NCBI GenBank assembly: GCA_009922585.1
Contig: RFVE01000001.1
Coordinates: 1 to 46,071, forward strand
Reading direction: 5' to 3'
DNA: 46,071 bases
DNA from: Planctomycetia bacterium
GTDB lineage: Bacteria; Planctomycetota; Planctomycetia; Pirellulales; UBA1268
Position 1 is the first letter of the stretch, and the number at the start of each line of letters is the position of its first letter. The notes below the pieces were generated by a model. The model was not told the DNA's origin and did not search any database. It saw only the letters and a program-made list of their open reading frames with translations. Shown here in pieces: positions 6,431 to 32,682 of the stretch. The position numbers were made by a program, and so were the translations under genes.

Positions 6431-7501
6431 TCACACAATCAGCATCGCATCGCCGTAGCTGAGGAAGCGGTAGCCCTTGGCGATCGCCTCGGCATAGGCC
6501 CGGCGGATGAGGTCGCGACCGGCAAGGCTGCTGACGAGCACCATCAGCGTCGTTCGTGGCAGATGAAAATTGGTCAGCAGACAGTCGACTGCGTGAAACG
6601 AAAAGCCCGGACGGATGTAGAGGCTGGTCGGCCCGGTGAACGGCTCGAGCTGGCCATCGCGGGTAGCCGTCTCAAGTGACCGCACCGCCGTTGTGCCAAC
6701 CGCTAGCACCCGGCCGCCGCGGCTTCGCGTCTCCCGCACAGCCGCCACTGTCGCTGCCGGCACCGCACACCACTCGGTGTGCATCGGATGATCGGCGATC
6801 CGTTCGGTGCCGATCGGCCGGAAGGTGTCGAGGCCGACATGCAGCGTTACCTCCGCGCGTCTGATGCCCCGGGCACTCAGTTGCTCAAGTAGCTGCGGCG
6901 TGAAGTGCAGTCCCGCAGTCGGCGCAGCGGCCGATCCGGGCTGCTCGGCAAAGACCGTCTGGTAGCGGTCGACGTCCTCGCCCCGAGCCTCACCTCCACG
7001 AATGTAGCCCGGCAGCGGCACGCGGCCGACACGGGCAAGCACCACGGGCGTCGGTTCGTCGGCCTGTGGCTCAACCACCCAGGTGCCCCCCTCGCCACGG
7101 CCGACCAGAAGGAGTTCGACAGCAGCGGCTCCTGCTGGATCGACAAGCGTAATCCGCTCACCGACGGCCGGGCGGCCCCGGGTCTTGGCGAGGATCGACC
7201 AGCAACGGCGGTTACCTGCAGCCAGAACCTCCGCCAGAAACAGCCCCTCCCAGCGGCCGCCGGTCTCCGCTCGCTGCCCGATCAGCCGGGCCGGCACCAC
7301 CCGGGTATCGTTGACCACCACCAGATCGTTCGGGCTGAGCAGCTCAGGCAGATCGCGAATGTGGGCATGCCGCAGGCTGCCGCTCGCCCGCTCCACCACC
7401 AGCAGCCGTGCCGCCGCCCGATCAGCTAGCGGCTCTTGGGCAATCAGCTCGGCTGGCAGTTCGTAGTCGTAGCAGTCGGCGGCTTCGGGGTCGTTCTGCA
7501 T
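6431..7501 (-). CDS. queA: S-adenosylmethionine:tRNA ribosyltransferase-isomerase
   Basis: YDYELPAELIAQEPL, GTTAVRSLE, LLTNFHLPRTTLMVLVSSLAG and the C-terminal YRFLSYGDAMLI. The internal ATG at 7501 (MQNDPEAADCYDYELP) fits the family N-terminus better than the track start at 7588. Confidence 0.9.
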   Translation of the reverse strand: MQNDPEAADCYDYELPAELIAQEPLADRAAARLLVVERASGSLRHAHIRDLPELLSPNDLVVVNDTRVVPARLIGQRAETGGRWEGLFLAEVLAAGNRRCWSILAKTRGRPAVGERITLVDPAGAAAVELLLVGRGEGGTWVVEPQADEPTPVVLARVGRVPLPGYIRGGEARGEDVDRYQTVFAEQPGSAAAPTAGLHFTPQLLEQLSARGIRRAEVTLHVGLDTFRPIGTERIADHPMHTEWCAVPAATVAAVRETRSRGGRVLAVGTTAVRSLETATRDGQLEPFTGPTSLYIRPGFSFHAVDCLLTNFHLPRTTLMVLVSSLAGRDLIRRAYAEAIAKGYRFLSYGDAMLIV

Positions 7502-7600
7502 GAGGCAAAGCGTACCGCGCCAATTGCCGCGGTTGCCCAACGGGGTGGTGGTAAACTGGGTGAGCGTTCTCTCAGCACTACCCAACAATCAAGCACCCAC

Positions 7601-8515
7601 GTGAGCGAAACACCGCCCCCGACGGTACCGCCCCCTCCCACCAGCAAGCACGTCAGCGTGATGCCGCGGGAGTCGCTCTCGTTCCTCGCCCTTGAACCCG
7701 GCATGACCGTTGTTGATGGCACGCTCGGCGGTGGCGGCCACACCCGGTTACTGGCCCAGGCCGTCGGGCCGACCGGCCGGGTGATCGCCATTGACCGCGA
7801 TCCATTGGCCATCGATCGAGGAGCCCGAGAACTGGCTGGCCTGCCGATCCGCTTTGCCCAGGCCAATTTCCGGGACATCCCCGAAGTGCTCGATGCGGTC
7901 GGTGTCGAGACAGTCGATGGCGTGCTGCTCGACGTCGGGCTGTCGAGTGACCAACTGGCCGATCGCAGCCGCGGGTTTTCCTTCGAGGCCGACGGTCCGC
8001 TTGACCTGCGGTTTGATCCGACCGAAGGCGAGCCTGCCTGGCGACTGGTCAACCGGCTGCGGCCCGAAACCCTGGCCGACTTGATCTATGAGTTTGGCGA
8101 GGAACGCTACAGCCGGCGGATCGCCCGGCGGATCGCAGCGGCTCGCGAACGTCAGCCAATCGAATCAGCCCGTGATTTTGCCAGGCTGGTTGCCTCCGCC
8201 ATTCCCCGCCAATCGCCACCCCCGCGCATCCACCCCGCCACCCGCACCTTTCAGGCGTTGCGAATTGCGGTGAACGAGGAACTGAAGAGCCTCCAGATTG
8301 CCCTGGAACGCATTCCCACCCGGTTGCGGCCCGGTGGCCGACTGGTGGTGATCTCGTTTCATTCCCTTGAGGATCGGCTGGTCAAGACGGCTTTTCGCAG
8401 CCCGCAGACCTGGGACTGCCTGACCCGGTCACCCCGCGAGGCCCAGCCTGATGAAGTGGGGGCGAATTCCCGCTCCCGATCTGCCCGGCTGCGGGCGGCC
8501 GCCCGCCTGGCCTGA
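7601..8515 (+). CDS. rsmH: 16S rRNA (cytosine1402-N4)-methyltransferase
   Basis: HVSVMPRESL, VDGTLGGGGHT, DLGLSSDQL-like DVGLSSDQL and ISFHSLEDR. The track start (TTG 7436) would overlap queA. GTG at 7601 gives about 305 aa, the usual size. Confidence 0.9.
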   Translation: MSETPPPTVPPPPTSKHVSVMPRESLSFLALEPGMTVVDGTLGGGGHTRLLAQAVGPTGRVIAIDRDPLAIDRGARELAGLPIRFAQANFRDIPEVLDAVGVETVDGVLLDVGLSSDQLADRSRGFSFEADGPLDLRFDPTEGEPAWRLVNRLRPETLADLIYEFGEERYSRRIARRIAAARERQPIESARDFARLVASAIPRQSPPPRIHPATRTFQALRIAVNEELKSLQIALERIPTRLRPGGRLVVISFHSLEDRLVKTAFRSPQTWDCLTRSPREAQPDEVGANSRSRSARLRAAARLA

Positions 8516-12825: not shown

Positions 12826-13214
12826 AGCGAGACGGGTTAGAAAGGGCGGCGGGTCGGGCAGACCCTCGATACTCTACCCGCAGGGGGACCAAAAACGGCA
12901 GGATTCCCCAAAAAACCTTCCGCCGGGCTTTTCAGAATAGGCATTTTTGCCATAGCCCGCCCCGGACTCGATCGCTACCGTTTCCCGACCAGTTGGTGGC
13001 CCGGTGGTATTTGCTGGACCGCCTCAGCCGATTGAAGTGGCTCGCCCGGTCGTTCGCATGGTGCGGATGAGGTGAGCCGCCACAAGAAAAGCAACGCCGC
13101 GGGTCTCCGCGGAGCGATAGACCAATGGAACAACATCGCCAGCCTGTCACCCCCGCGGCTCCGCGGCATCCGGCAGACAATGGTCATTCAAGCGATCCAA
13201 TGGAGGATTCTGGT

Positions 13215-14132
13215 ATGAGCGGATCTGGCACGCCTGCGTCGAGAGTACTGCCGCACCAAGTTCGGCGGCGTCGCAGCAGCTTCGTCTGGGCCCTGCTCCC
13301 CTGTCTCCTTGCCTCCGTGGTTACCGCGAACGAACCAGCCGAACAGCCAGGGCTGCTGCCCAATGGCGGAGCCGCCGAGGGCAATGTCGGGGCTTCTGAT
13401 GCGGTCGCCAACACCGCCCCTGGTCAGCATCCACTTGAGCCGGCCTTGGCGCTCGCCGCCAAGGGGCTGGCCAACGTCAAGGCCAACATTCAGGACTACT
13501 CCTGCACGGTGGTCAAGCGAGAGCGGATTAGCGGTGAACTAAAGCCACACGAGTACATGTTCGCCAAGATCAGGCATCAACCGTTCAGCGTCTATCTCTA
13601 CTTTCTCGCACCCGATAGCGTGAAGGGGCAGGAGGTAATCTACGTCGACGGCCGGAACGACGGAAACATGCTGGCCCATGCCGGCAGCGGCGTTCGGGCG
13701 ATGGTCGGCACGGTGTCACTGAAACCACAGAGCATGCTGGCGATGCAGGGCAATCGCTATCCGATTACGGAACTGGGCGTCGAAAATCTTGCCAAGCGAC
13801 TCGTCGAAGTAGCTGAGCATGACAAGCAGTTCGGTGAGTGCGAGGTGAACTTCTACCCCGAGGCCAAGGTCAACGGCCGGGTCTGCACCTGCGTGCAGGT
13901 GGTCCATCCGGTGCCGCGGCGAAACTTCCGATTTCATCTCGCCCGGGTCTACATCGATGATGAACTCCTGATTCCGATCCGCTACGAGGCCTACGACTGG
14001 CCGGCCGAGCAGGGCGGACAGCCGGTGCTGATGGAGGAGTACACCTACATGAACGTGAAGGTGAACAACGGCTTTACTGACGCCGACTTCGACCCCGCCA
14101 ACACCGCCTATAAGTTCAGCGCCACAAAGTGA
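13215..14132 (+). CDS. secreted DUF1571-like protein
   Basis: Signal-like RRRRSSFVWALLPCLLASVVTA. The core YSCTVVKRERISGELKPHEYMFAKIRHQPFSVYLYF...GNRYPITELGVENL resembles, from memory, the planctomycetal DUF1571 family. The ATG at 13215 follows GGAGG by 8 nt; the track start is 13125. Confidence 0.55.
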   Translation: MSGSGTPASRVLPHQVRRRRSSFVWALLPCLLASVVTANEPAEQPGLLPNGGAAEGNVGASDAVANTAPGQHPLEPALALAAKGLANVKANIQDYSCTVVKRERISGELKPHEYMFAKIRHQPFSVYLYFLAPDSVKGQEVIYVDGRNDGNMLAHAGSGVRAMVGTVSLKPQSMLAMQGNRYPITELGVENLAKRLVEVAEHDKQFGECEVNFYPEAKVNGRVCTCVQVVHPVPRRNFRFHLARVYIDDELLIPIRYEAYDWPAEQGGQPVLMEEYTYMNVKVNNGFTDADFDPANTAYKFSATK

Positions 14133-24577: not shown

Positions 24578-25444
24578 TCAGACCGACGAGGGTTTGTCGG
24601 CAAGCGCCTCGTCCAACCCGGTGGCAACCAACCGGTTCGCGGCAGCAAGGAAGGCGGGCCGTTCCAGTGAAACCTCTTGGCGACGGGGAGTTCCGACCGG
24701 GTCGTCGGCATGGCGGCAGGGAATGACCACAGCCCCTGCCTCGCTGGCAATCAACAACCCGGCTGCAACGTCCCAGCAGGCAATTCGCCGCACCCAGAAA
24801 CCGTCGAGCCGACCAGCTGCAAGGTAGGCGAGATTGATTGCTGTCGAGCCCGTTCGTCGCACGGAATGGACCCTGGGAATGACGGCAAGAAAATCGGAGA
24901 CGGCCTGTGACTCCGCCGAAACGTGGGGAGGAAAGCTCACGGCAACGAGGGCATCGTTGAGGTCGAGAGGATCGGCGGTATGCAGTGCCATCCCGTCGAG
25001 CCTGGCGCCACCGCCCCTGATGGCAGTAAAACATTCGTCGGCGACCGGATCGTAGATCGCCCCAGCCAGCAGCCTGTCACCAACTGCTAACGCGACTGAC
25101 ACACAATAGGCTGGAAATCCATGGACGTAGTTACTGGTGCCATCGAGCGGATCGACCATCCAACGTAACGGCGGTACCTCCCGTTCGGCCTCCCCTTCTT
25201 CCCCGATGAAGCCGTGCTCGGGGAACCGGCCCAGCAGGATCTCGCGAATCGTTCGCTGGGCCGCGATATCGGCCTCGGTGACGAGATCCTTGGGGCCTTT
25301 CTTGGAAATACCGAACCGCCCACGCCAGTCCCTCAGCACCTCACCCCCTGCCCGGGCAGCAGTTTCGGCGGCATCGCCGAACTCCCTGAGTTCAGCCGCT
25401 GCGGGTTCGGTTTTGTCAGGTCCGCCGTTCGCTGCTTGTTGCAT
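24578..25444 (-). CDS. inositol monophosphatase family protein (SuhB/IMPase-like)
   Basis: FIGEEGE, WMVDPLDGTSNYVHG and WDVAAG motifs. The internal ATG at 25444 (MQQAANGG...) gives 288 aa; the track start at 25693 would overlap the divergent gene. Confidence 0.85.
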   Translation of the reverse strand: MQQAANGGPDKTEPAAAELREFGDAAETAARAGGEVLRDWRGRFGISKKGPKDLVTEADIAAQRTIREILLGRFPEHGFIGEEGEAEREVPPLRWMVDPLDGTSNYVHGFPAYCVSVALAVGDRLLAGAIYDPVADECFTAIRGGGARLDGMALHTADPLDLNDALVAVSFPPHVSAESQAVSDFLAVIPRVHSVRRTGSTAINLAYLAAGRLDGFWVRRIACWDVAAGLLIASEAGAVVIPCRHADDPVGTPRRQEVSLERPAFLAAANRLVATGLDEALADKPSSV

Positions 25445-25507
25445 GAATCTTCCTCGAGTATGCAGCGGTTTCAATCGCCGCGGCTGCATTACCCTAGATT
25501 CTACAAT

Positions 25508-26344
25508 ATGCTGCCGGATGCCATGACGCAGACCACGATCAGCAGCGGAGCAGCCACCGGGTTCACCTGGCATGCCCGCAAATCGACCGATCACTCCCGC
25601 CGCGATGCCGCCAGCAACACTGACCGGCTGAATGTTGAGATCGGTGACCTCAGCGGCTGGCTTGACCTGCACCGCCCCGAGCAGGGCATTCAACTCAGCG
25701 GGTGTAACGCCGCAGCCGAACTGCTGGCAGTGAGGCTACCCGACAGGCTTGCCAATCAATTCATCGATGGCTGGGTTCGCGGCGGCGACGCGGTCTCCAT
25801 CCACGAACCGCGGAATAGCCGCAGGCTTCGTGCCACGGCCCTGTGGCGGCTGGCGACAGGTCCGGCCGATCTCACTGTTGAACTGGTGCTGTCAGTTCAG
25901 ACCTCAGCCGTTCGCAGTGATGGAGCTATCGCTGTCGATTGCCGGTTGCCAGCGACTGAGGTCATTCCAGGCATCAGTACAGGCCAACAGCTGGAATGGC
26001 TACCGCCCATCCCCACCGCTGGCGTTACCCAACTGCCCTGGCGGCAACTCGCCAATGCTGCCGTACTCTGCCTCCTGTTTCGTCAGTCCCTTGCGGGCCG
26101 AAGTCTTGCCATCTGCGTACGGCGAGACGAGGGTCGCGAAGTCTCCTTGCAGAGGCGCACGCTGCCCGAACGCCCCGAGCCACCCAGCTTCACCCTCACG
26201 ACCTGGTTTTTCCCCACACTCATCGAGAAGGGTGTGCTGCATCGAAGCCGCCTCTCGGTCACCATCGGGAGTCCGGCAGATGATTTGGCATGGGCAGCAG
26301 CAGCAGCCCAGTCACTGGCCAGTCAGCCACCGCTTTTGCAGTAG
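25508..26344 (+). CDS. hypothetical cytoplasmic protein (278 aa)
   Basis: Coding-like third-position GC bias. No TM segment and no motif I recognise. The ATG at 25508 is chosen because the track start (25214) lies inside the divergent IMPase gene. Confidence 0.5.
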   Translation: MLPDAMTQTTISSGAATGFTWHARKSTDHSRRDAASNTDRLNVEIGDLSGWLDLHRPEQGIQLSGCNAAAELLAVRLPDRLANQFIDGWVRGGDAVSIHEPRNSRRLRATALWRLATGPADLTVELVLSVQTSAVRSDGAIAVDCRLPATEVIPGISTGQQLEWLPPIPTAGVTQLPWRQLANAAVLCLLFRQSLAGRSLAICVRRDEGREVSLQRRTLPERPEPPSFTLTTWFFPTLIEKGVLHRSRLSVTIGSPADDLAWAAAAAQSLASQPPLLQ

Positions 26345-26479
26345 CGGAAATCACGGTGACGGCGGTAGAGTCCTGAACAAGGATGGACTTAAACCGGGCA
26401 AACAGGCGAAACCTTGCCAGTAGATGCAGCCTGGTCTGGCAGCGATCGTCCCACCGCCCGAATCGCCGAGAGACTGCCC

Positions 26480-27682
26480 ATGTTTGATCTTATTTTCGCC
26501 TCTAATCCTACCATTGACTGCCCAATTGCTGAGCCGGAAGGCATCCCCGAGCCGCTCGGCCTCCGGCTCAGACAAGCACCACTGACCGCTCTGCGGCAAG
26601 CCTACCAGCTGGCCCGCGAGCATGAGGCCAGTGGCGTTGTTCTCTGCGGCAGCGTCATCAACCCGCTGCGGGCAAGTCCTGCTCAGGTGATTGCCCTTCG
26701 CCAACTCGTCCTCGAAGCAGCGGCCGACGGCTGCGACACCATTTGGGTCACGACCAATCCGACAGCCCCCCGCGAGGTACAGCGGATGCTGGGGGAACCT
26801 GCCGGTCTGAGCTTTGCCACGCCACTCAATCCCTGGACGGCGACCATTCGCTCGACCACAGTTGAACTCTGGGCAACCGCCACCCCAGCCGACGCTGAAC
26901 GTGCCGTAGCCACCGAATCGCCCGCGGCGTTGCACCGTCGGATCCTGATTGGCTGTGAGTCTGAACACGACCGGACGGCCCGCCAGACCATCCCACCAGC
27001 AGTGCTGAGCCGGCCAGACACCCTTGTGATTTGGGCCACCGCGACCGCCGGTAGCCTGCCACCCGGAGTCCTCCGCTTGCCACCCCTCCAGGCCCGAGCA
27101 CGAAATCTGCCACCTGATGAAGGCTGTCACGGGCTGCGTCTCTATCAGCCACCAACAGACAACGACGAGGCCGCCGTCCAAACGGCAGCGGCCAGCCGTC
27201 AACTTGCCAGCTGGCAGTCGCTGCCAGCTGCGGCAGTAATCTGGCGGACGATCTGCATCGAGTCTGCTGAAGGCGACCATACTCAACTTGCTGAAAGCCT
27301 CTGGCGGGCCCTTGAACCGCTGGCGCAACAACCGCCGCCAGCCACTACCGCCCCGTTGACCTTGATTGACTGCCAGGTTTCGTGCGGTACGAGCGTGGAA
27401 CGTCGGATCGAGGTCGGCGCTGCTGCTGAGGCGACGCTCCGCCTGCTGCGTGAACGCTGTCGCACGGCGACCGGAGACCTCTGGTGCGAAGCCGTTGCTG
27501 CCGACGCCGATGAGTCGCTTGCTCCCCTCGGCCACAGTCGCTCGGGGGGACGCCCCGGCGCCAGCAACTCATTCACCTCGGCACTGGCCGACATCGTGAC
27601 CGAGCGGGAAGCGACCGGCCAGGGTGTGCCGCTCGACCGGGAAGCTGCCTGGCTCGCCCTCGAACTGCTCGCGGCCGACTGA
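26480..27682 (+). CDS. YhaO/SbcD-like calcineurin-type phosphoesterase homologue with substituted metal-ligand motifs (putative pseudo-nuclease)
   Basis: 400 aa, placed immediately upstream (19-nt gap) of the Rad50-like ATPase, as in yhaO-yhaN/sbcD-sbcC pairs. By-eye alignment to the canonical motifs: LIFASNPTID vs FIHxADxHLD; VVLCGSVIN vs vvIaGDlfD; IWVTTNPT vs vyxIxGNHD; PPLQARARNLPPDEGCHGLRLY vs GNxQGRhxxExGxKGxxLV. The ATG at 26480 (MFDLIF) is preferred to the track start at 26414. Confidence 0.55.
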   Translation: MFDLIFASNPTIDCPIAEPEGIPEPLGLRLRQAPLTALRQAYQLAREHEASGVVLCGSVINPLRASPAQVIALRQLVLEAAADGCDTIWVTTNPTAPREVQRMLGEPAGLSFATPLNPWTATIRSTTVELWATATPADAERAVATESPAALHRRILIGCESEHDRTARQTIPPAVLSRPDTLVIWATATAGSLPPGVLRLPPLQARARNLPPDEGCHGLRLYQPPTDNDEAAVQTAAASRQLASWQSLPAAAVIWRTICIESAEGDHTQLAESLWRALEPLAQQPPPATTAPLTLIDCQVSCGTSVERRIEVGAAAEATLRLLRERCRTATGDLWCEAVAADADESLAPLGHSRSGGRPGASNSFTSALADIVTEREATGQGVPLDREAAWLALELLAAD

Positions 27683-27701
27683 ACTTTGTGGAGAAAAGCC
27701 A

Positions 27702-30700
27702 ATGCACATTGAACGGCTGGAGATTGAACAGTTTGGCGGGCTCGAAGATGTCACCATCGATGGGCTCGGCCGGGGCGTGCAGGTTCTGCACGGCACGAAC
27801 GAAATCGGAAAGACCTCACTGCTGGAATTTGTCCGGGCAATCTTCTTCGGCTTCGAAGGCCTCTTCCGCCGTGGCGTGCTTGACCCGCAGCGGCCCTGCA
27901 GCGGACGGTTGGTGGTGACAATCGGCCGGGGACCGCGGGGAGAACGCGAGCGGCACCGGTTCCTGATTGAACGCCGGCATGAAGGACCTGAAATCGCCAG
28001 CCTTACCCGGGCCAGCTACGAGGACGGCATTGTCGGCCTCGGTGGTGACGAAGGCGACCTCGTGACCATTGAGCGACTCGATAACCACCACGATGCCGAC
28101 CAACGGATCTACCTCCAGGACCTCGTCGGAGATATCGACGAAGCCACCTTCACCAACGTGATGGCCTTTGGGCTCGACGAACTGCATGAACTACGAACCC
28201 TCGAGCCGGAGGGCTGCGGAAGTCGGCTTTACGAACTTGCCAACGGTCTTGATCGCTCGCGGGTTGCTGGCACGCTTCGCCATATCGAAGAGGCGATCGC
28301 CCGGCTGGAGCAGGGAGACGGCGATGCCAACGAGCCACCCCTGAAAGCACTTCAACGACAGCGGCAGGAACTCCGCGAGCTGATCGAGACCGATACCGCC
28401 GCCACGATTGGTGACCTGTTTGTCGAACAGACACGGTTGGAACGCGAGGCCGATGGCCTGGCGGCAGCGGTTGACCGGGCCAGGCGGTCCGAGGGACTGA
28501 TCCGGGCAGCGGTGCCAGCAGGTGAACTTCACAGCACCTGGAGAAGGCTCACCGCCGAGTTGGAGGCCCTGAAGCTTGTCACCCTTGTCCACCCCGACTA
28601 CGACGGCTGGCGACAGGATGTCAAAGGGCGGCGCCGAGCCGCCCGCCTGGCCGAGAAGCGGCGGCAGGAACGGCGACGGCTGGCGCGGGAACTGGCTGAC
28701 GTCCCTGCCGAGAACGTGATTTGGGAGAAGCGCTCGGCCATTTCGGCACTCAATGATGAGCGGCCGCAACTGGAGCGACTGGTTGCCGATGCCAGCCGGG
28801 CCGAGGCCCATGCCAGACTGGCCGCCCGCAGGTTTGGCGAGCAAGTTGGGCTCTGCGGTCTCGCCAAACTTGTTCAGGTCGATCAGCTTGATGCCGCTGA
28901 CGACGGACTTGGTGTGTTGCTGCCGGAAGGGCTCTCGCTCTCCTTCGGGCCCCTGCGGAACCGGGCCCGGCGGTGCAAGGCGGCATCCCGCGGAGTGGCG
29001 AAGGCCCGCGCCCGACTTTCGCGTGCAAAAAAAAGGCTGCAGCAGGCCGAAGGCCGGGTTCAGGGGGCCGAGGCATCACTTGGCGGCCTGAGCCTGACTG
29101 CCGCCATCGAGGCGGCCACCGAACAGGCGACGGCGACTCGAAAACGCCTGGCCATCGGAAAGCGAGTGGAAGAACTGCAGGCAACAACCGCTCAACTGGA
29201 GCGGGAGATGGGTCGACAGCTTGAGGGGCAAGTGCTGCCGATGAACTGGCTACTCGGCCTTGGCGGTGTCTTTGTCGTCGGCGCTGGCATGCTGCTCTCA
29301 GGACTGCTGCTGCCGGCGGTGGTCACCGGACCGCTGGCGTACGTGATCGCAGCCCTCGGGCTTGCGGGGACCGGCGTGGCCTCGGTGATGACCTGGTCGC
29401 TTGACAAGTCAGCAGGAGTCAAGCTCGACGAGCTCAGACGGCAGCACGACCTCGCCCAGCAGCAGCAGGCCGAGGCGGTCAGCCAGTGCGAGACTCTCGA
29501 CCGGACAATCGCCAAGGCGGCCCGCCAACTCGCCATCACGGCCACCGACGATGTTCCACGGTTCGAGCATGGTGGTGATCTTGAACGACGGGCCGCCCAG
29601 GCTGACGCCGAGATCGCCCGGCTGGAACAGCTGGCTGGCCGGGAGGGTACCCTGCCCGTTTTCAACGAACGGGTTGAAGCTGCTCGGCAGGGATTGAAAC
29701 GAGCCATTGGCCGCCGCAAATCGGCGGTGGCCCGCTGGAAAAAGTCACTCGAACAGCGGGGGCTGCCAGCCACCCTCAGCCCGGCTGAGGTTTGGCGAAT
29801 CGGCACCCATCGCCATGAACTGCTGGCCCTTGATGATGACCGCCGTCGGCTTTCGGACGAGGCTCGGCAGAAGCGGGAAGAACTCACGGCCGCTGCCCGT
29901 CGCATCGACGCAGTGATGGTTGAATGCAACCTCGTGCCCGAGGGAACGCCACTTGACCATCTCCAGCAGCTCGACGAATTGCTCGATCAGCAGCGGCGGA
30001 TTCACGACCAGCGGCAGTCCCTCAGTCGAAAACTTGACCGATCCCGGCTGCGTCACCGGCAGGCGATCCGGCAACTCCGGGCCTGCGACCGTGGCCTCCG
30101 GGCCTGGCTGGAACGCTGGGAAGTTGAAACCGAAGAGGACTTTCTGGCCCAGGTTGATCGCCGCCCGGCCTTTGACCAGCTCGAACGAGATACTGCCATT
30201 GCCGAACGCAGCTGGCTCGACGCACGGGCCCGATTTGCTGAACCCGATCTGCTCGACGAATGGCTCGGTGATCAGTCTGAACTGCCACTGCAGCAGAGGC
30301 TGGAAGATGCCGAAGCAGCTTCCACCGAATTAACGCAGACACTCGCCAGCCGCCGGCAACAGCTCGACCGTCTCACCGAGCGAATCGCACTGGCTGAAGT
30401 TGATGACGACCGTGAGCGAAAGCAGCGACAGCTCGCTCGGATCGAGGCAGCGATTGCCGAGCACGAGCGGCGGTCGCGGCTGCTCCACCGCACGCACGAT
30501 CTACTGGAAAAAACCCGAGCAGAGGTCGCTCGCCACCATCAGCCAGCGGCGCTGCAGGAGGCGTCACACTGGCTCAAACAGCTGACCGAGGGGCGTTACG
30601 TCAGGATTACCACAGCCGTCGACGAGGCACGACTCGATGTCCACGATGCATCCGGTACGGTCTGGAATCCTGAGCGGCTCAGCCGAGGCACCCGTGAACA

Positions 30701-31070
30701 GGTCTTTCTGGCCCTGCGGTTGGCCCTGGTTCGCAGCCTGCACGAGCACGGCGTCGTGCTGCCGGTCGTGATGGATGATGCCCTGGTCAACTTTGACGAT
30801 ACCCGCGCCCGAGCAGCGGCCCGCACGCTGGTCGCATTCATGGCTGATCAGGCGGGGGATCGGCAGATGCTCGTGCTCACCTGCCACGCCCATGTTGCCG
30901 CATTGTTTGAAGACGCGAAGGCAACTGTTCGCTTCCTCGGGCCGGCACCACCGCGACGAACCGTTCCGACACGTCTGACAACGGCTCCGGCCCCAACACC
31001 CCGGGTGTCCTCCGAGTCCTGGCCGGCCGAAGAGTTCTTTTTTGGTTCAGGCCAAGGCCGAAACCAGTAG
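27702..31070 (+). CDS. Rad50/SbcC/YhaN-type AAA ATPase with central membrane hairpin (1122 aa)
   Basis: N-terminus MHIERLEIEQFGGLEDVTI...LHGTNEIGKTSLLE (Walker A). Long Arg/Glu/Leu/Gln coiled-coil arms. Two hydrophobic helices at residues ~513-566. C-terminal signature LSRGTREQ, Walker B LPVVMDDALVNFD and LTCH. The ATG at 27702 is chosen over the track start at 27624. Confidence 0.85.
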   Translation: MHIERLEIEQFGGLEDVTIDGLGRGVQVLHGTNEIGKTSLLEFVRAIFFGFEGLFRRGVLDPQRPCSGRLVVTIGRGPRGERERHRFLIERRHEGPEIASLTRASYEDGIVGLGGDEGDLVTIERLDNHHDADQRIYLQDLVGDIDEATFTNVMAFGLDELHELRTLEPEGCGSRLYELANGLDRSRVAGTLRHIEEAIARLEQGDGDANEPPLKALQRQRQELRELIETDTAATIGDLFVEQTRLEREADGLAAAVDRARRSEGLIRAAVPAGELHSTWRRLTAELEALKLVTLVHPDYDGWRQDVKGRRRAARLAEKRRQERRRLARELADVPAENVIWEKRSAISALNDERPQLERLVADASRAEAHARLAARRFGEQVGLCGLAKLVQVDQLDAADDGLGVLLPEGLSLSFGPLRNRARRCKAASRGVAKARARLSRAKKRLQQAEGRVQGAEASLGGLSLTAAIEAATEQATATRKRLAIGKRVEELQATTAQLEREMGRQLEGQVLPMNWLLGLGGVFVVGAGMLLSGLLLPAVVTGPLAYVIAALGLAGTGVASVMTWSLDKSAGVKLDELRRQHDLAQQQQAEAVSQCETLDRTIAKAARQLAITATDDVPRFEHGGDLERRAAQADAEIARLEQLAGREGTLPVFNERVEAARQGLKRAIGRRKSAVARWKKSLEQRGLPATLSPAEVWRIGTHRHELLALDDDRRRLSDEARQKREELTAAARRIDAVMVECNLVPEGTPLDHLQQLDELLDQQRRIHDQRQSLSRKLDRSRLRHRQAIRQLRACDRGLRAWLERWEVETEEDFLAQVDRRPAFDQLERDTAIAERSWLDARARFAEPDLLDEWLGDQSELPLQQRLEDAEAASTELTQTLASRRQQLDRLTERIALAEVDDDRERKQRQLARIEAAIAEHERRSRLLHRTHDLLEKTRAEVARHHQPAALQEASHWLKQLTEGRYVRITTAVDEARLDVHDASGTVWNPERLSRGTREQVFLALRLALVRSLHEHGVVLPVVMDDALVNFDDTRARAAARTLVAFMADQAGDRQMLVLTCHAHVAALFEDAKATVRFLGPAPPRRTVPTRLTTAPAPTPRVSSESWPAEEFFFGSGQGRNQ

Positions 31071-31081
31071 CAAACCCGCGG

Positions 31082-31558
31082 CTATGACAGCCCTGGCAGC
31101 CGGTCACGGACGAGGCTCAGGTAGCGGGTCCGCATACCGCCGAGCAGAATGCCAAGGTAGGCATTCCCCCCAAGCGAAAGAAACAGCGCCACAAGCGTGC
31201 CGATCAGAAGCGACCACGGGCGTTCCTCAGCTGGCGATTCCTCAGCCGGCGATTCTGCGGCGGTCATGGTTCCCGCCGCGGTTGGCCGGGGTCGAGCCGC
31301 AGCCTCGATGACGCTCCGCTCCACCGTCGCCGGCCAACGATCAGCGACGTAAATGCAGACACGGCGGACATCCCGGCTGTCGGCCGGCACATCGCTGGAG
31401 AATGTATAGGGACTGCGGCCGGCGACCAGATCAGGTTCGACCCGAACGAGATAGTCCCCACCGCCTGTCTCTGCTGGAACGTAGGCCGTTTCGATACCCG
31501 TGGCCAGCATGGCAGCGGTCAGACAGAGGAATTTGAGCAACATCGTTATGCCTTTCAA
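31082..31558 (-). CDS. small secreted/membrane-anchored hypothetical protein
   Basis: Signal peptide MLLKFLCLTAAMLATG, an AESPAEESPAEE repeat, and a C-terminal TM segment WSLLIGTLVALFLSLGGNAYLGILLGG. Convergent with the ATPase gene. Confidence 0.45.
   Translation of the reverse strand: MKGITMLLKFLCLTAAMLATGIETAYVPAETGGGDYLVRVEPDLVAGRSPYTFSSDVPADSRDVRRVCIYVADRWPATVERSVIEAAARPRPTAAGTMTAAESPAEESPAEERPWSLLIGTLVALFLSLGGNAYLGILLGGMRTRYLSLVRDRLPGLS
31224..31257. repeat. 15-nt tandem repeat (about 2.3 copies) inside the small ORF
   Basis: TTCCTCAGCTGGCGA / TTCCTCAGCCGGCGA / TTCT..., which encodes the SPAEE repeat on the minus strand. Confidence 0.5.
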
Positions 31559-31599
31559 CGCTGGGGTCGGCCAGTCAGCCTCCTACCGATGATTCTATT

Positions 31600-32682
31600 T
31601 CACCCTCGGCTGGGCGGTTCATGCAACTCGGCTGTGGCCACAGCCGCCTGACGGTCTTCGGCGAGCGTGCCAAGCTCAGTCTGAAGCATCGTCAGGGCTG
31701 CCTGCAGAAAGGCCACGGCAATGGGGCCGACGAAGATGCCGATCGGGCCGAGCGCACCAACCCCACCCAGCACACTGAGCAGAGCCAGCAGCGGGTGGAG
31801 CTTTGACTGACCGTGAAGGACGATCGGCTTGATCACATTGTCGATCGTTGAGACGACCGACACCCCCCAGAGAGCGAGCCCGACAGCAGCCCAGGTATCT
31901 TTGACAAAAAATAGCAGGTAGAGACTCGCCCCACCCCAGACCGCCGCCGCGCCGACAAAGGGAATCATCGCCGCAAAGAAGGTGAGCAGGGTGAGCAGAA
32001 AAACCGTTTCGAGCCCCGCGAAGTAGAAACCAAAGCCAGCCAGTACAGCCTGGACAATGGCTGCCAAAAGCGTCGAACTGACAACCGCCCGACTGATCTC
32101 CTCAAACTCCTCGAGCAACTGCCATTGATACCGCTGATCAAGCGGGATCAGCCGGGTGACCGCGGCGAACATCCGCGAACCATCGGCAAGAAAATAAAAC
32201 AGTGAAACTGTCATGACGATCACGCCAATGATCAGCTTGATGATGACAACCGGGGCACCAGTGGCAATCGGACCGAACAGATCCTCTGCCAGCTTTCGCA
32301 ACTCGGCGTTGACGTCATCTGCGGTAAGGTGAAGCCCGGTCGCCTCGTTGAACGAGGTGATGAATCCATCAAGGATCGCCGGGTCAAGCCGCAGGCCGGA
32401 TGGACTTTTGAGCATGGCCACTGCATCACCGCCTGCACGGATCACCAGTAACGCCAGCGGCACCAACACGATCAGCAGCACAAAACCGGTGGTCAGCCCG
32501 GCCGCCACCCAGTCGGGACTTCGTAAGGCCTGCCGCAGCCAGCGGTAGAGCGGTCCAAAGATCACGACCAGCATGGCCGCCAACAGCAGCGGCAGTAGGA
32601 AGCCCGCCATCACCCGGAGCGACAGCAGGCCAAAGACCGCAATCAGGCCGAGAATAACACCGAGAGAAATCAGGCGGGCCAT
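31600..32682 (-). CDS. AI-2E family transporter (PerM/UPF0118)
   Basis: Polytopic. FFAAMIPFVGAAAVWGGASLYLLF and IDNVIKPIVLHGQSKLHPLLALLSVLGGVGALGPIGIFVGP are typical of the family. The internal ATG at 32682 (MARLISLGVILG) is preferred to the track start at 32859. Confidence 0.85.
   Translation of the reverse strand: MARLISLGVILGLIAVFGLLSLRVMAGFLLPLLLAAMLVVIFGPLYRWLRQALRSPDWVAAGLTTGFVLLIVLVPLALLVIRAGGDAVAMLKSPSGLRLDPAILDGFITSFNEATGLHLTADDVNAELRKLAEDLFGPIATGAPVVIIKLIIGVIVMTVSLFYFLADGSRMFAAVTRLIPLDQRYQWQLLEEFEEISRAVVSSTLLAAIVQAVLAGFGFYFAGLETVFLLTLLTFFAAMIPFVGAAAVWGGASLYLLFFVKDTWAAVGLALWGVSVVSTIDNVIKPIVLHGQSKLHPLLALLSVLGGVGALGPIGIFVGPIAVAFLQAALTMLQTELGTLAEDRQAAVATAELHEPPSRG

Follow-up and report, generated by a model that had tools for sequence, protein, structure and literature searches.

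A stretch of 46,071 nucleotides from a Pirellulales bacterium of the Planctomycetota (contig RFVE01000001.1, from here on referred to as the window) carries three co-directional genes, named g1, g2 and g3, which encode proteins of 278, 400 and 1122 amino acids (aa) and are separated by gaps of 135 and 19 nucleotides. We find that g2 and g3 represent a YhaO/YhaN-type (SbcF/SbcE-type) pair in which the Mre11-like partner, g2, has lost its phosphoesterase site and is maintained under purifying selection, while g3 is a Rad50-like ATPase with a hydrophobic apical hairpin in its coiled-coil region. The family identity of the pair is highly probable. The best explanation of the system as a whole is a nuclease-free, membrane-tethered, ATP-driven DNA clamp built on a YhaO/YhaN scaffold, to which we assign a probability of roughly 0.55. 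A preceding first-pass annotation, made from the sequence alone, had described the three genes as a cassette of an unknown protein, an apparent pseudo-nuclease and a membrane-inserted Rad50-like ATPase. The sizes, direction and spacing it gave for the three genes were all reproduced here.

A YhaO-like protein without a phosphoesterase site

Searches with the g2 sequence were silent. No family match was obtained in Pfam (even at E ≤ 1), NCBIfam, PADLOC or among PDB sequences, with single-sequence and family-profile searches of the PDB reaching E ~0.2 at best, to SbcD. Specifically, the Pfam Metallophos model (PF00149) did not match g2, and 120 homologues carry no precomputed Pfam family. Structure prediction was therefore needed. 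The AlphaFold2 model of g2, based on a 39-sequence alignment, was obtained with a predicted local distance difference test score (pLDDT) of 88 and a predicted template modelling score (pTM) of 0.87, and its predicted fold consists of a phosphoesterase domain plus a capping domain of the Mre11 type. When the model was compared with the PDB using Foldseek, the 50 best matches listed were all Mre11 or SbcD proteins (E 1.6e-8 to 1e-5, probability 1.00, template modelling (TM) score 0.40-0.50). The most conserved region of g2 is the C-terminal stretch SFxSALAD...REAxWLALEL, for which the model predicts two terminal helices (residues 365-378 and 384-399). Their position is that of the element by which Mre11 and SbcD bind Rad50.

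Kinship with YhaO could be traced through intermediate sequences. An exhaustive profile search against 1.84 billion representatives returned only 22 proteins below 1e-30, followed by proteins of about 410 aa at 1e-12 to 1e-3, some of which pass or approach the Pfam Metallophos model. The distant relatives that were placed in genomes belong to the Lacipirellulaceae; among them are the cultured representatives Adhaeretor mobilis, Lacipirellula limnantheis and Aeoliella. Using hhalign, the g2 family (alignment A1) was aligned with this Lacipirellulaceae YhaO-like family (alignment A5) at E=1.5e-19 over 368 columns, and the Lacipirellulaceae family in turn was aligned with Bacillus YhaO at E=1.4e-36 and with Escherichia coli SbcD at E=1.9e-8. 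Direct comparison of the g2 family with Bacillus YhaO gave only E=1.9e-4 at a probability of 48%, and the homology link is thus a transitive one. The first-pass annotation had compared the order and sizes of the last two genes with sbcD-sbcC or yhaO-yhaN pairs, which is corrected here to orthology with YhaO/YhaN.

Eight catalytic positions were mapped on a joint alignment that included 39 members of the window's family. Given in the order E. coli SbcD/Bacillus YhaO/g2, these are D8/D12/N9 (Asp) and H10/H14/T11 (His) in motif I, D48/D61/S58 (Asp) in motif II, N83/N96/N93 (Asn) and H84/H97/P94 (His) in motif III, H184/H168/C159 (His) in motif IV, and H222/H200/T187 (first His) and H224/H202/T189 (second His) in motif V. 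Seven of the eight positions are substituted in g2. Of the 39 family members, 29 retain the motif I Asp and nine have a sporadic, non-conserved Asn; the catalytic residue is kept at no other column. None of the family's 40 invariant columns is a His, and no conserved His/Asp cluster is evident in the alignment. The nuclease partner had been called apparently inactivated in the first-pass annotation, and this stands after proper alignment, which reveals no conserved set of catalytic residues in the 400-aa protein. The competing idea of an ordinary YhaO/YhaN orthologue with working active sites holds for orthology but not for the active site, which is lost across the clade. Judged from sequence and model, g2 is a YhaO/SbcF-like protein of the Mre11 fold without a phosphoesterase site, in other words a pseudo-nuclease.

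The loss of the site appears to be graded. The 58 distant relatives include 12 with an intact set of residues (DHDNHHHH) and one more that differs at the motif III Asn alone. About 30 of the 58 possess a half-site, DHD-xx-(H/Y)-G-H, in which the ligands of one metal are kept and the Asn and His of motif III as well as the first His of motif V are missing. The half-site state is found in most Lacipirellulaceae YhaO-like proteins (loci L082-L146; for example L108, positions 7010-8245, Adhaeretor mobilis NZ_CP036263), cultured strains included. A genome scan with one of the intact relatives (P0306) gave a single locus, which belongs to the Bacillota; because of this, the intact relatives reached by the profile are classed, on sequence grounds, as Bacillota-type YhaO and not as planctomycetal. 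As far as sequences can tell, there is a graded series that runs from the intact YhaO of the Bacillus group via one metal site in the Lacipirellulaceae to none in the window's clade.

More than 135 homologues of g2 were identified, with the open reading frame (ORF) intact at about 400 aa. Compared with four relatives, the ratio of nonsynonymous to synonymous substitution rates (dN/dS) of g2 is 0.12-0.20, with dS up to 1.4, and that of g3 is 0.06-0.12. At the same distance, g2 shows 50% identity versus 63% for g3. The faster evolution and higher dN/dS of g2 could be taken to indicate that it is a decaying YhaO relic without a function of its own. However, the intact reading frame, the 40 invariant columns and the confident fold speak against decay, as do dN/dS values that stay in the stated range out to dS >1 and the retention of g2 beside g3 in every locus examined. 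Decay is extremely improbable, and a pseudogene in decay was rejected on the basis of dN/dS and conservation. Because the dN/dS of g2 is this low, the protein is read as a maintained pseudo-nuclease under purifying selection.

The YhaN/SbcE-family ATPase and its hydrophobic apex

g3 has more than 254 homologues. It is matched at residues 1-52 by Pfam AAA_27, the N-terminal P-loop domain of YhaN type (PF13514; score 30.4 bits, cutoff 22, E=3.8e-7), and AAA_23 also scores above its Pfam cutoff. PF13514 is precomputed on nearly all g3 homologues, and the Joint Genome Institute (JGI) name is 'uncharacterized protein YhaN'. The yhaO-yhaN locus of Bacillus spizizenii was retrieved via a primer sequence from the SbcE paper (PMC2811018). 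Using hhalign, the profile of the g3 family (alignment A3, 21 g3 homologues) was aligned with B. spizizenii YhaN at E=1.8e-14; the alignment spans 122 columns of the C-terminal head, with 34% identity. The ATPase motifs are invariant in the 21 homologues, namely Walker A (GTNExGKT), Q139, the ATP-binding cassette (ABC) signature, Walker B, the D-loop and H1062 (Table 1). The Walker B motif has two Asp residues in both proteins, with VVMDD in g3 and QLDD in Bacillus YhaN, where it forms part of LDDSFVHFD. From these sequence features, g3 is assigned to the YhaN/SbcE family.

A single stretch of g3 (residues 510-568) has a Kyte-Doolittle 19-residue mean above 1.6, with a peak of 2.35. It is located midway along the long helical region, consists of two helices and a turn, and contains many invariant Gly, Ala, Leu and Pro positions in A3. 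A CxxC zinc hook motif was not found when the g3 sequence was read. Equivalent proline-turn hairpins are present in Bacillus YhaN (VVIAAGMLFIVLFLLLQQWIPAISIGAALLVYWLVSG) and in the Adhaeretor mobilis homologue, and the SbcE paper of 2009 already described the central domain as conserved, hydrophobic and insoluble, with a conserved proline and without a CxxC hook (PMC2811018). Because Bacillus YhaN has the same hydrophobic hairpin, the putative apex anchor is not locus-specific, and the idea that it is special to this locus was rejected; the hydrophobic apex is, by sequence comparison, a trait of the YhaN/SbcE family. The membrane-inserted Rad50-like ATPase of the first-pass annotation is accordingly kept in part: a Rad50/SMC-like (structural maintenance of chromosomes) ATPase with a hydrophobic hairpin at the coiled-coil apex is present, and may insert into the membrane, but this is not a special feature, since it is shared with Bacillus YhaN. 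What is special here, so far as the compared sequences indicate, is not the apex but the loss of the nuclease site, which is clade-wide and graded across the Pirellulales.

The C-terminus of g3 carries an additional motif, WPAExFFFG (positions 31020-31043, residues 1107-1114), which follows a proline-rich and poorly conserved linker. In A3, W1107 is invariant, and A1109, E1110, F1113 and F1114 are nearly so. The motif is missing from Bacillus YhaN, and the tail differs in the Adhaeretor homologue. It could represent a docking peptide for a partner.

The upstream gene g1 and the surrounding locus

g1 was found to have no match in Pfam, NCBIfam or PADLOC, in agreement with the earlier statement that it contains no recognisable motif. 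No hydrophobic N-terminal stretch was seen on reading its sequence. The AlphaFold2 model of g1 (pLDDT 77, pTM 0.81) is a beta-supersandwich, and Foldseek returned weak matches (E 7e-5 to 1e-3, TM score ~0.45) to a GH38 accessory domain, the YidC P1 domain and galactose-mutarotase-like proteins. Conserved residues are found in the motifs EKGVLxRxR and yEPxDxRxLR. The proposal that g1 could be an effector is not supported, as neither the family scans nor the fold give a nuclease or other effector signature.

The distribution of g1 was determined in a set of clade loci from 80 species-level genomes that share a syntenic neighbourhood of about 20 kb. According to a hidden Markov model (HMM) search, 69 of the 80 loci contain g1; of the 11 misses, eight are explained by contig ends, and in the remaining three (L024, L034 and L035) g1 is missing upstream of the pair. 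g2 and g3 are adjacent in all 80 clade loci where downstream DNA is present. In the Lacipirellulaceae-type loci, the pair is adjacent in 62 of 66 cases, with the other four ending close to the YhaO-like gene, and it often precedes the same AI-2E transporter and glycosyltransferase family 2 (GT2) genes. No g1 homologue was detected within 7 kb of the Lacipirellulaceae pair, either by tblastn or by an HMM of 79 g1 sequences at E<10. The gene upstream of the pair in A. mobilis encodes an unrelated low-complexity protein of 621 aa, and the gene upstream of yhaO in Bacillus encodes an unrelated membrane protein and not g1. Kept together with the three genes across the clade loci are a 1263-aa ORF, an inositol monophosphatase (IMPase) gene, a small convergent ORF, the AI-2E transporter and the GT2 glycosyltransferase. 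As the whole neighbourhood is conserved, the adjacency of g1 in the clade carries little functional information. The trio does not behave as a cassette, given that g1 does not always accompany the pair: it adjoins g2 and g3 only in loci that keep the housekeeping synteny over about 20 kb, is absent near the Lacipirellulaceae pair and is not the neighbour of yhaO in Bacillus. g1 is probably an independent, clade-specific neighbour gene and not a subunit. It should be noted that g1 and g2 are spaced 2-2.5 kb apart in three loci, namely L032 (5600-7900), L051 (5481-7688) and L052 (1524-3071). In L051 and L052 the spacer contains an inserted gene; the two inserted genes are homologous at their C-terminal ends and apparently differ in orientation, with the L051 copy apparently on the opposite strand.

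Table 1 Positions of the three genes, of the sequence motifs of g3 and of neighbouring genes in the window.
Feature	Position	Strand	Remarks
DUF1571 protein	13125-14132	+	Pfam 9.8e-79; domain of unknown function
Giant ORF, 2189 aa	14181-20750	-	
Giant ORF, 1263 aa	20765-24556	-	
IMPase gene	24578-25693	-	divergent, upstream of g1; Pfam Inositol_P 1.4e-55
g1	25508-26344	+	278 aa; predicted cytoplasmic beta-supersandwich; ATG of MLPDAMTQ taken as start; conserved upstream neighbour, system membership doubtful
g2	26480-27682	+	400 aa; N-terminus MFDLIF
g3	27702-31070	+	1122 aa; N-terminus MHIERLEIEQFGG
g3 Walker A, G31-T38	27792-27815	+	GTNEIGKT; invariant in A3
g3 apex hydrophobic helical hairpin, residues 510-568	29229-29405	+	LLLPAVVTGP turn; predicted membrane anchor in place of the zinc hook
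g3 ABC signature, L993-Q1000	30678-30701	+	LSRGTREQ; invariant in A3; aligns with LSQGTCEQ of Bacillus YhaN
g3 Walker B and D-loop	30759-30800	+	LPVVMDDALVNFDD; Asp-Asp, not Asp-Glu; invariant in A3
g3 H-loop, H1062	30885-30887	+	in LTCHAH; invariant in A3; aligns with FTCHDH of Bacillus YhaN
158-aa ORF	31082-31558	-	convergent, 11 nucleotides downstream of g3

All three genes are considered real based on the presence of homologues for each and on dN/dS values well below 1 for g2 and g3. Homologues of g1 start at the same residue or slightly upstream or downstream of it, the start position of g2 is common to every homologue in the family alignment, and the start of g3 is backed by homologues that begin at the same residue in A3. 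The divergent IMPase gene and the convergent gene for a small secreted-type protein were both found where the first-pass annotation had placed them. The longest IMPase ORF, with a TTG start, overlaps the start of g1 by 186 nucleotides. In this ORF the Pfam domain does not start before residue 102, and matches to homologues set in at about residue 100. An internal Met close to 25441 or 25489 is probably the real start, and the divergent intergenic region between the IMPase gene and g1 would then be very short. In the protein of the convergent 158-aa ORF, the N-terminus resembles a signal peptide and a segment at the C-terminus is hydrophobic; a Pfam scan gave no family. Across the clade the ORF is kept downstream of g3, with 53-96% identity, and its C-terminal part has faint matches in a few Lacipirellulaceae loci.

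Further upstream are two adjacent giant ORFs of 2189 and 1263 aa, for which a Pfam scan gave zero matches, and beside them a gene for a DUF1571 protein. The 1263-aa ORF has hydrophobic segments close to both termini, and most of the related Pirellulales loci have it at the same place, upstream of the IMPase gene, with 37-76% identity. The wider neighbours, among them IMPase, the AI-2E transporter, GT2, CdsA, QueA, PPK and DnaJ, are housekeeping genes, and the synteny of about 20 kb across the 80 species-level genomes indicates vertical inheritance. The G+C content of the window is about 64%. Its close relatives are all Planctomycetota, mostly metagenome-assembled genomes of Pirellulales, and the window's own clade was sampled here through metagenome-assembled genomes only. 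Several contigs with a Pirellulales-type locus and synteny (L001, L018, L032, L035, L036 and others) are deposited as metagenome-assembled genomes of 'uncultured Chitinophagaceae bacterium' or 'Candidatus Kuenenia', labels that are probably taxonomic mis-assignments. A promoter scan of positions 25000-31700 gave no promoter-like sites, and a terminator scan of the same region gave three terminator-like sites versus 4.7 expected from shuffles, which is uninformative on planctomycete operon structure.

Possible functions and comparison with known systems

The loss of the g2 site under selection means that cleavage by YhaO is dispensable for what the pair does as its conserved function. Mre11-Rad50 retains its roles in DNA tethering and signalling when Mre11 is nuclease-dead. 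We hypothesize that two copies of g2 and two copies of g3 would assemble into a heterotetramer resembling Mre11-Rad50, which the g3 hairpins would hold in the cytoplasmic membrane. The ATPase heads, located in the cytoplasm, could then use ATP to clamp or tether DNA, or the ends of DNA. g2 would serve only as a structural, head-bridging and regulatory subunit, the complex itself would presumably make no cut in DNA, and g1 would most likely stand outside the system. This tether or clamp mechanism is put forward tentatively, at somewhat less than even odds. The experimental data available for the family stem from B. subtilis genetics and point to double-strand break repair and transformation (PMC2811018).

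Several points weigh against the clamp explanation. In B. subtilis, work on the SbcE/YhaN family met with mild phenotypes and insoluble proteins, and its function is ill-defined (PMC2811018). DNA binding, membrane insertion and the interaction of g2 with g3 are all properties that we infer from sequence. The Asp in place of Glu in Walker B, which Bacillus YhaN shares, may lead to slow ATP turnover. Lastly, the pair could have a membrane role outside DNA metabolism, namely tethering or remodelling in the planctomycetal endomembrane system, with the coiled coils acting as spacers and g2 as an inert scaffold. Such a role would agree with the complete loss of the nuclease site, with the apex hairpin being the most conserved part of g3 outside the head (A3), and with conserved neighbours that include the AI-2E transporter, the membrane glycosyltransferase of the GT2 type and the small secreted or membrane protein. 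However, this neighbourhood is generic synteny in which the neighbours lie on opposite strands and form no operon, the g3 head keeps Rad50/RecF-like features of DNA-binding relatives, and the genetics of the family point to repair and transformation, so that a purely membrane-related function is judged unlikely.

Retained DNA processing, either by an unrecognised active site in g2 or by g2 and g3 acting as a scaffold that recruits a nuclease encoded elsewhere, is viewed as unlikely. The half-site of the Lacipirellulaceae (D, H, D, H) suggests gradual loss, with some activity perhaps passed to a partner, and g2 has invariant polar residues away from the old site (R102, E106, R153, Q204, R308 and R309). 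On the other hand, all eight canonical positions are non-conserved in the family, the alignment shows no evident conserved His/Asp cluster, and the neighbourhood holds no conserved partner nuclease. A Lamassu-like or other SMC-based defence system, with g3 as DNA-end sensor, g2 as LmuC-like adaptor and g1 as effector or effector-docking subunit, is very unlikely, even though the order of a small protein, an SbcD-derived protein and an SMC-like ATPase resembles lmuA-lmuC-lmuB. Lamassu has been derived from SbcCD, and LmuC from the C-terminal domain of SbcD (PMC12663957), and one PADLOC LmuB model matches g3 at residues 576-1061 with E=1.3e-10. The other PADLOC matches of g3, however, span only the generic P-loop N-terminus, g1 and g2 are without any PADLOC match, and both Pfam and hhalign place g3 in the YhaN family. 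Moreover, g1 is a beta-sandwich without a nuclease, protease, Sir2 or lipase domain and is absent at the orthologous Lacipirellulaceae loci, and the vertically inherited locus is embedded in housekeeping synteny, unlike defence islands. The anti-phage or anti-plasmid role that the first-pass annotation had entertained thus finds no support in the genomic context. Quite unlikely, too, is a three-part domesticated Lamassu-like architecture, which would form a membrane-anchored, nuclease-free DNA sensor or tether as a core component of Pirellulales (e.g. in nucleoid anchoring or DNA handling at the membrane), with g1 as a newly recruited third subunit. If true, this would be the first Mre11-Rad50-type machine known to operate without any nuclease, acting as a lasting tether between membrane and DNA.

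Literature searches on YhaN/SbcE/SbcF, COG4717 and membrane-anchored Rad50-like proteins returned nothing beyond the 2009 SbcE paper and passing mentions. The pair itself belongs to a known but poorly studied family. YhaO/YhaN (SbcF/SbcE) is among the least understood bacterial SMC-like systems. A loss of the nuclease site that extends across a clade under selection and has natural intermediates seems not to have been described in the literature searched. The removal of the chemistry with both proteins kept points to a structural, tethering or sensing role of the putatively membrane-anchored ATPase, and the succession of intact, half-site and absent active sites offers a natural separation-of-function series for experiments. 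In practical terms the impact is modest and the interest to SMC and DNA-repair specialists moderate, the function being one that we infer.

In terms of known systems, the pair is closest to YhaO/YhaN (SbcF/SbcE; COG4717; Pfam AAA_27), with which it shares a Mre11-like gene directly upstream of the ATPase gene, similar protein sizes (408 aa for Bacillus YhaO and 400 aa for g2, ~963 aa for Bacillus YhaN and 1122 aa for g3), the unusual signature LSxGTxEQ together with the 'DD' Walker B and the TCH motif, and a proline-turn hydrophobic hairpin instead of CxxC. In contrast to g2, which has none of them conserved, Bacillus YhaO has all phosphoesterase motifs (DLH, GD, GNHD, H and GHIH), and g3 is about 160 aa longer than Bacillus YhaN and has a proline-rich tail ending in WPAExFFFG. 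The pair of the Lacipirellulaceae (A. mobilis HG15A2, L. limnantheis I41) is the positional orthologue, with a homologous Mre11-like subunit and with the hairpin and the DD Walker B in its g3 homologue, but most of its members keep one metal site and it lacks the nearby g1 homologue. Similar to SbcCD and Mre11-Rad50, g2 has a predicted Mre11 fold, and the ABC head of g3 is Rad50-like and interrupted by long coiled coils, whereas g2 and g3 possess neither zinc hook nor nuclease site and the apex is predicted to lie in the membrane. With Lamassu (LmuA-LmuC-LmuB or DdmABC), the locus has in common an SMC/Rad50-derived sensor, an SbcD-derived partner without nuclease activity and a third gene upstream. 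However, LmuC retains the C-terminal domain of SbcD only while g2 retains the whole fold, and the effector domains and patchy, island-like distribution of Lamassu differ from the core, syntenic and effector-free g1-g3 locus. g2 and g3 are a chromosomal housekeeping parallel to the route that Lamassu took from SbcCD.

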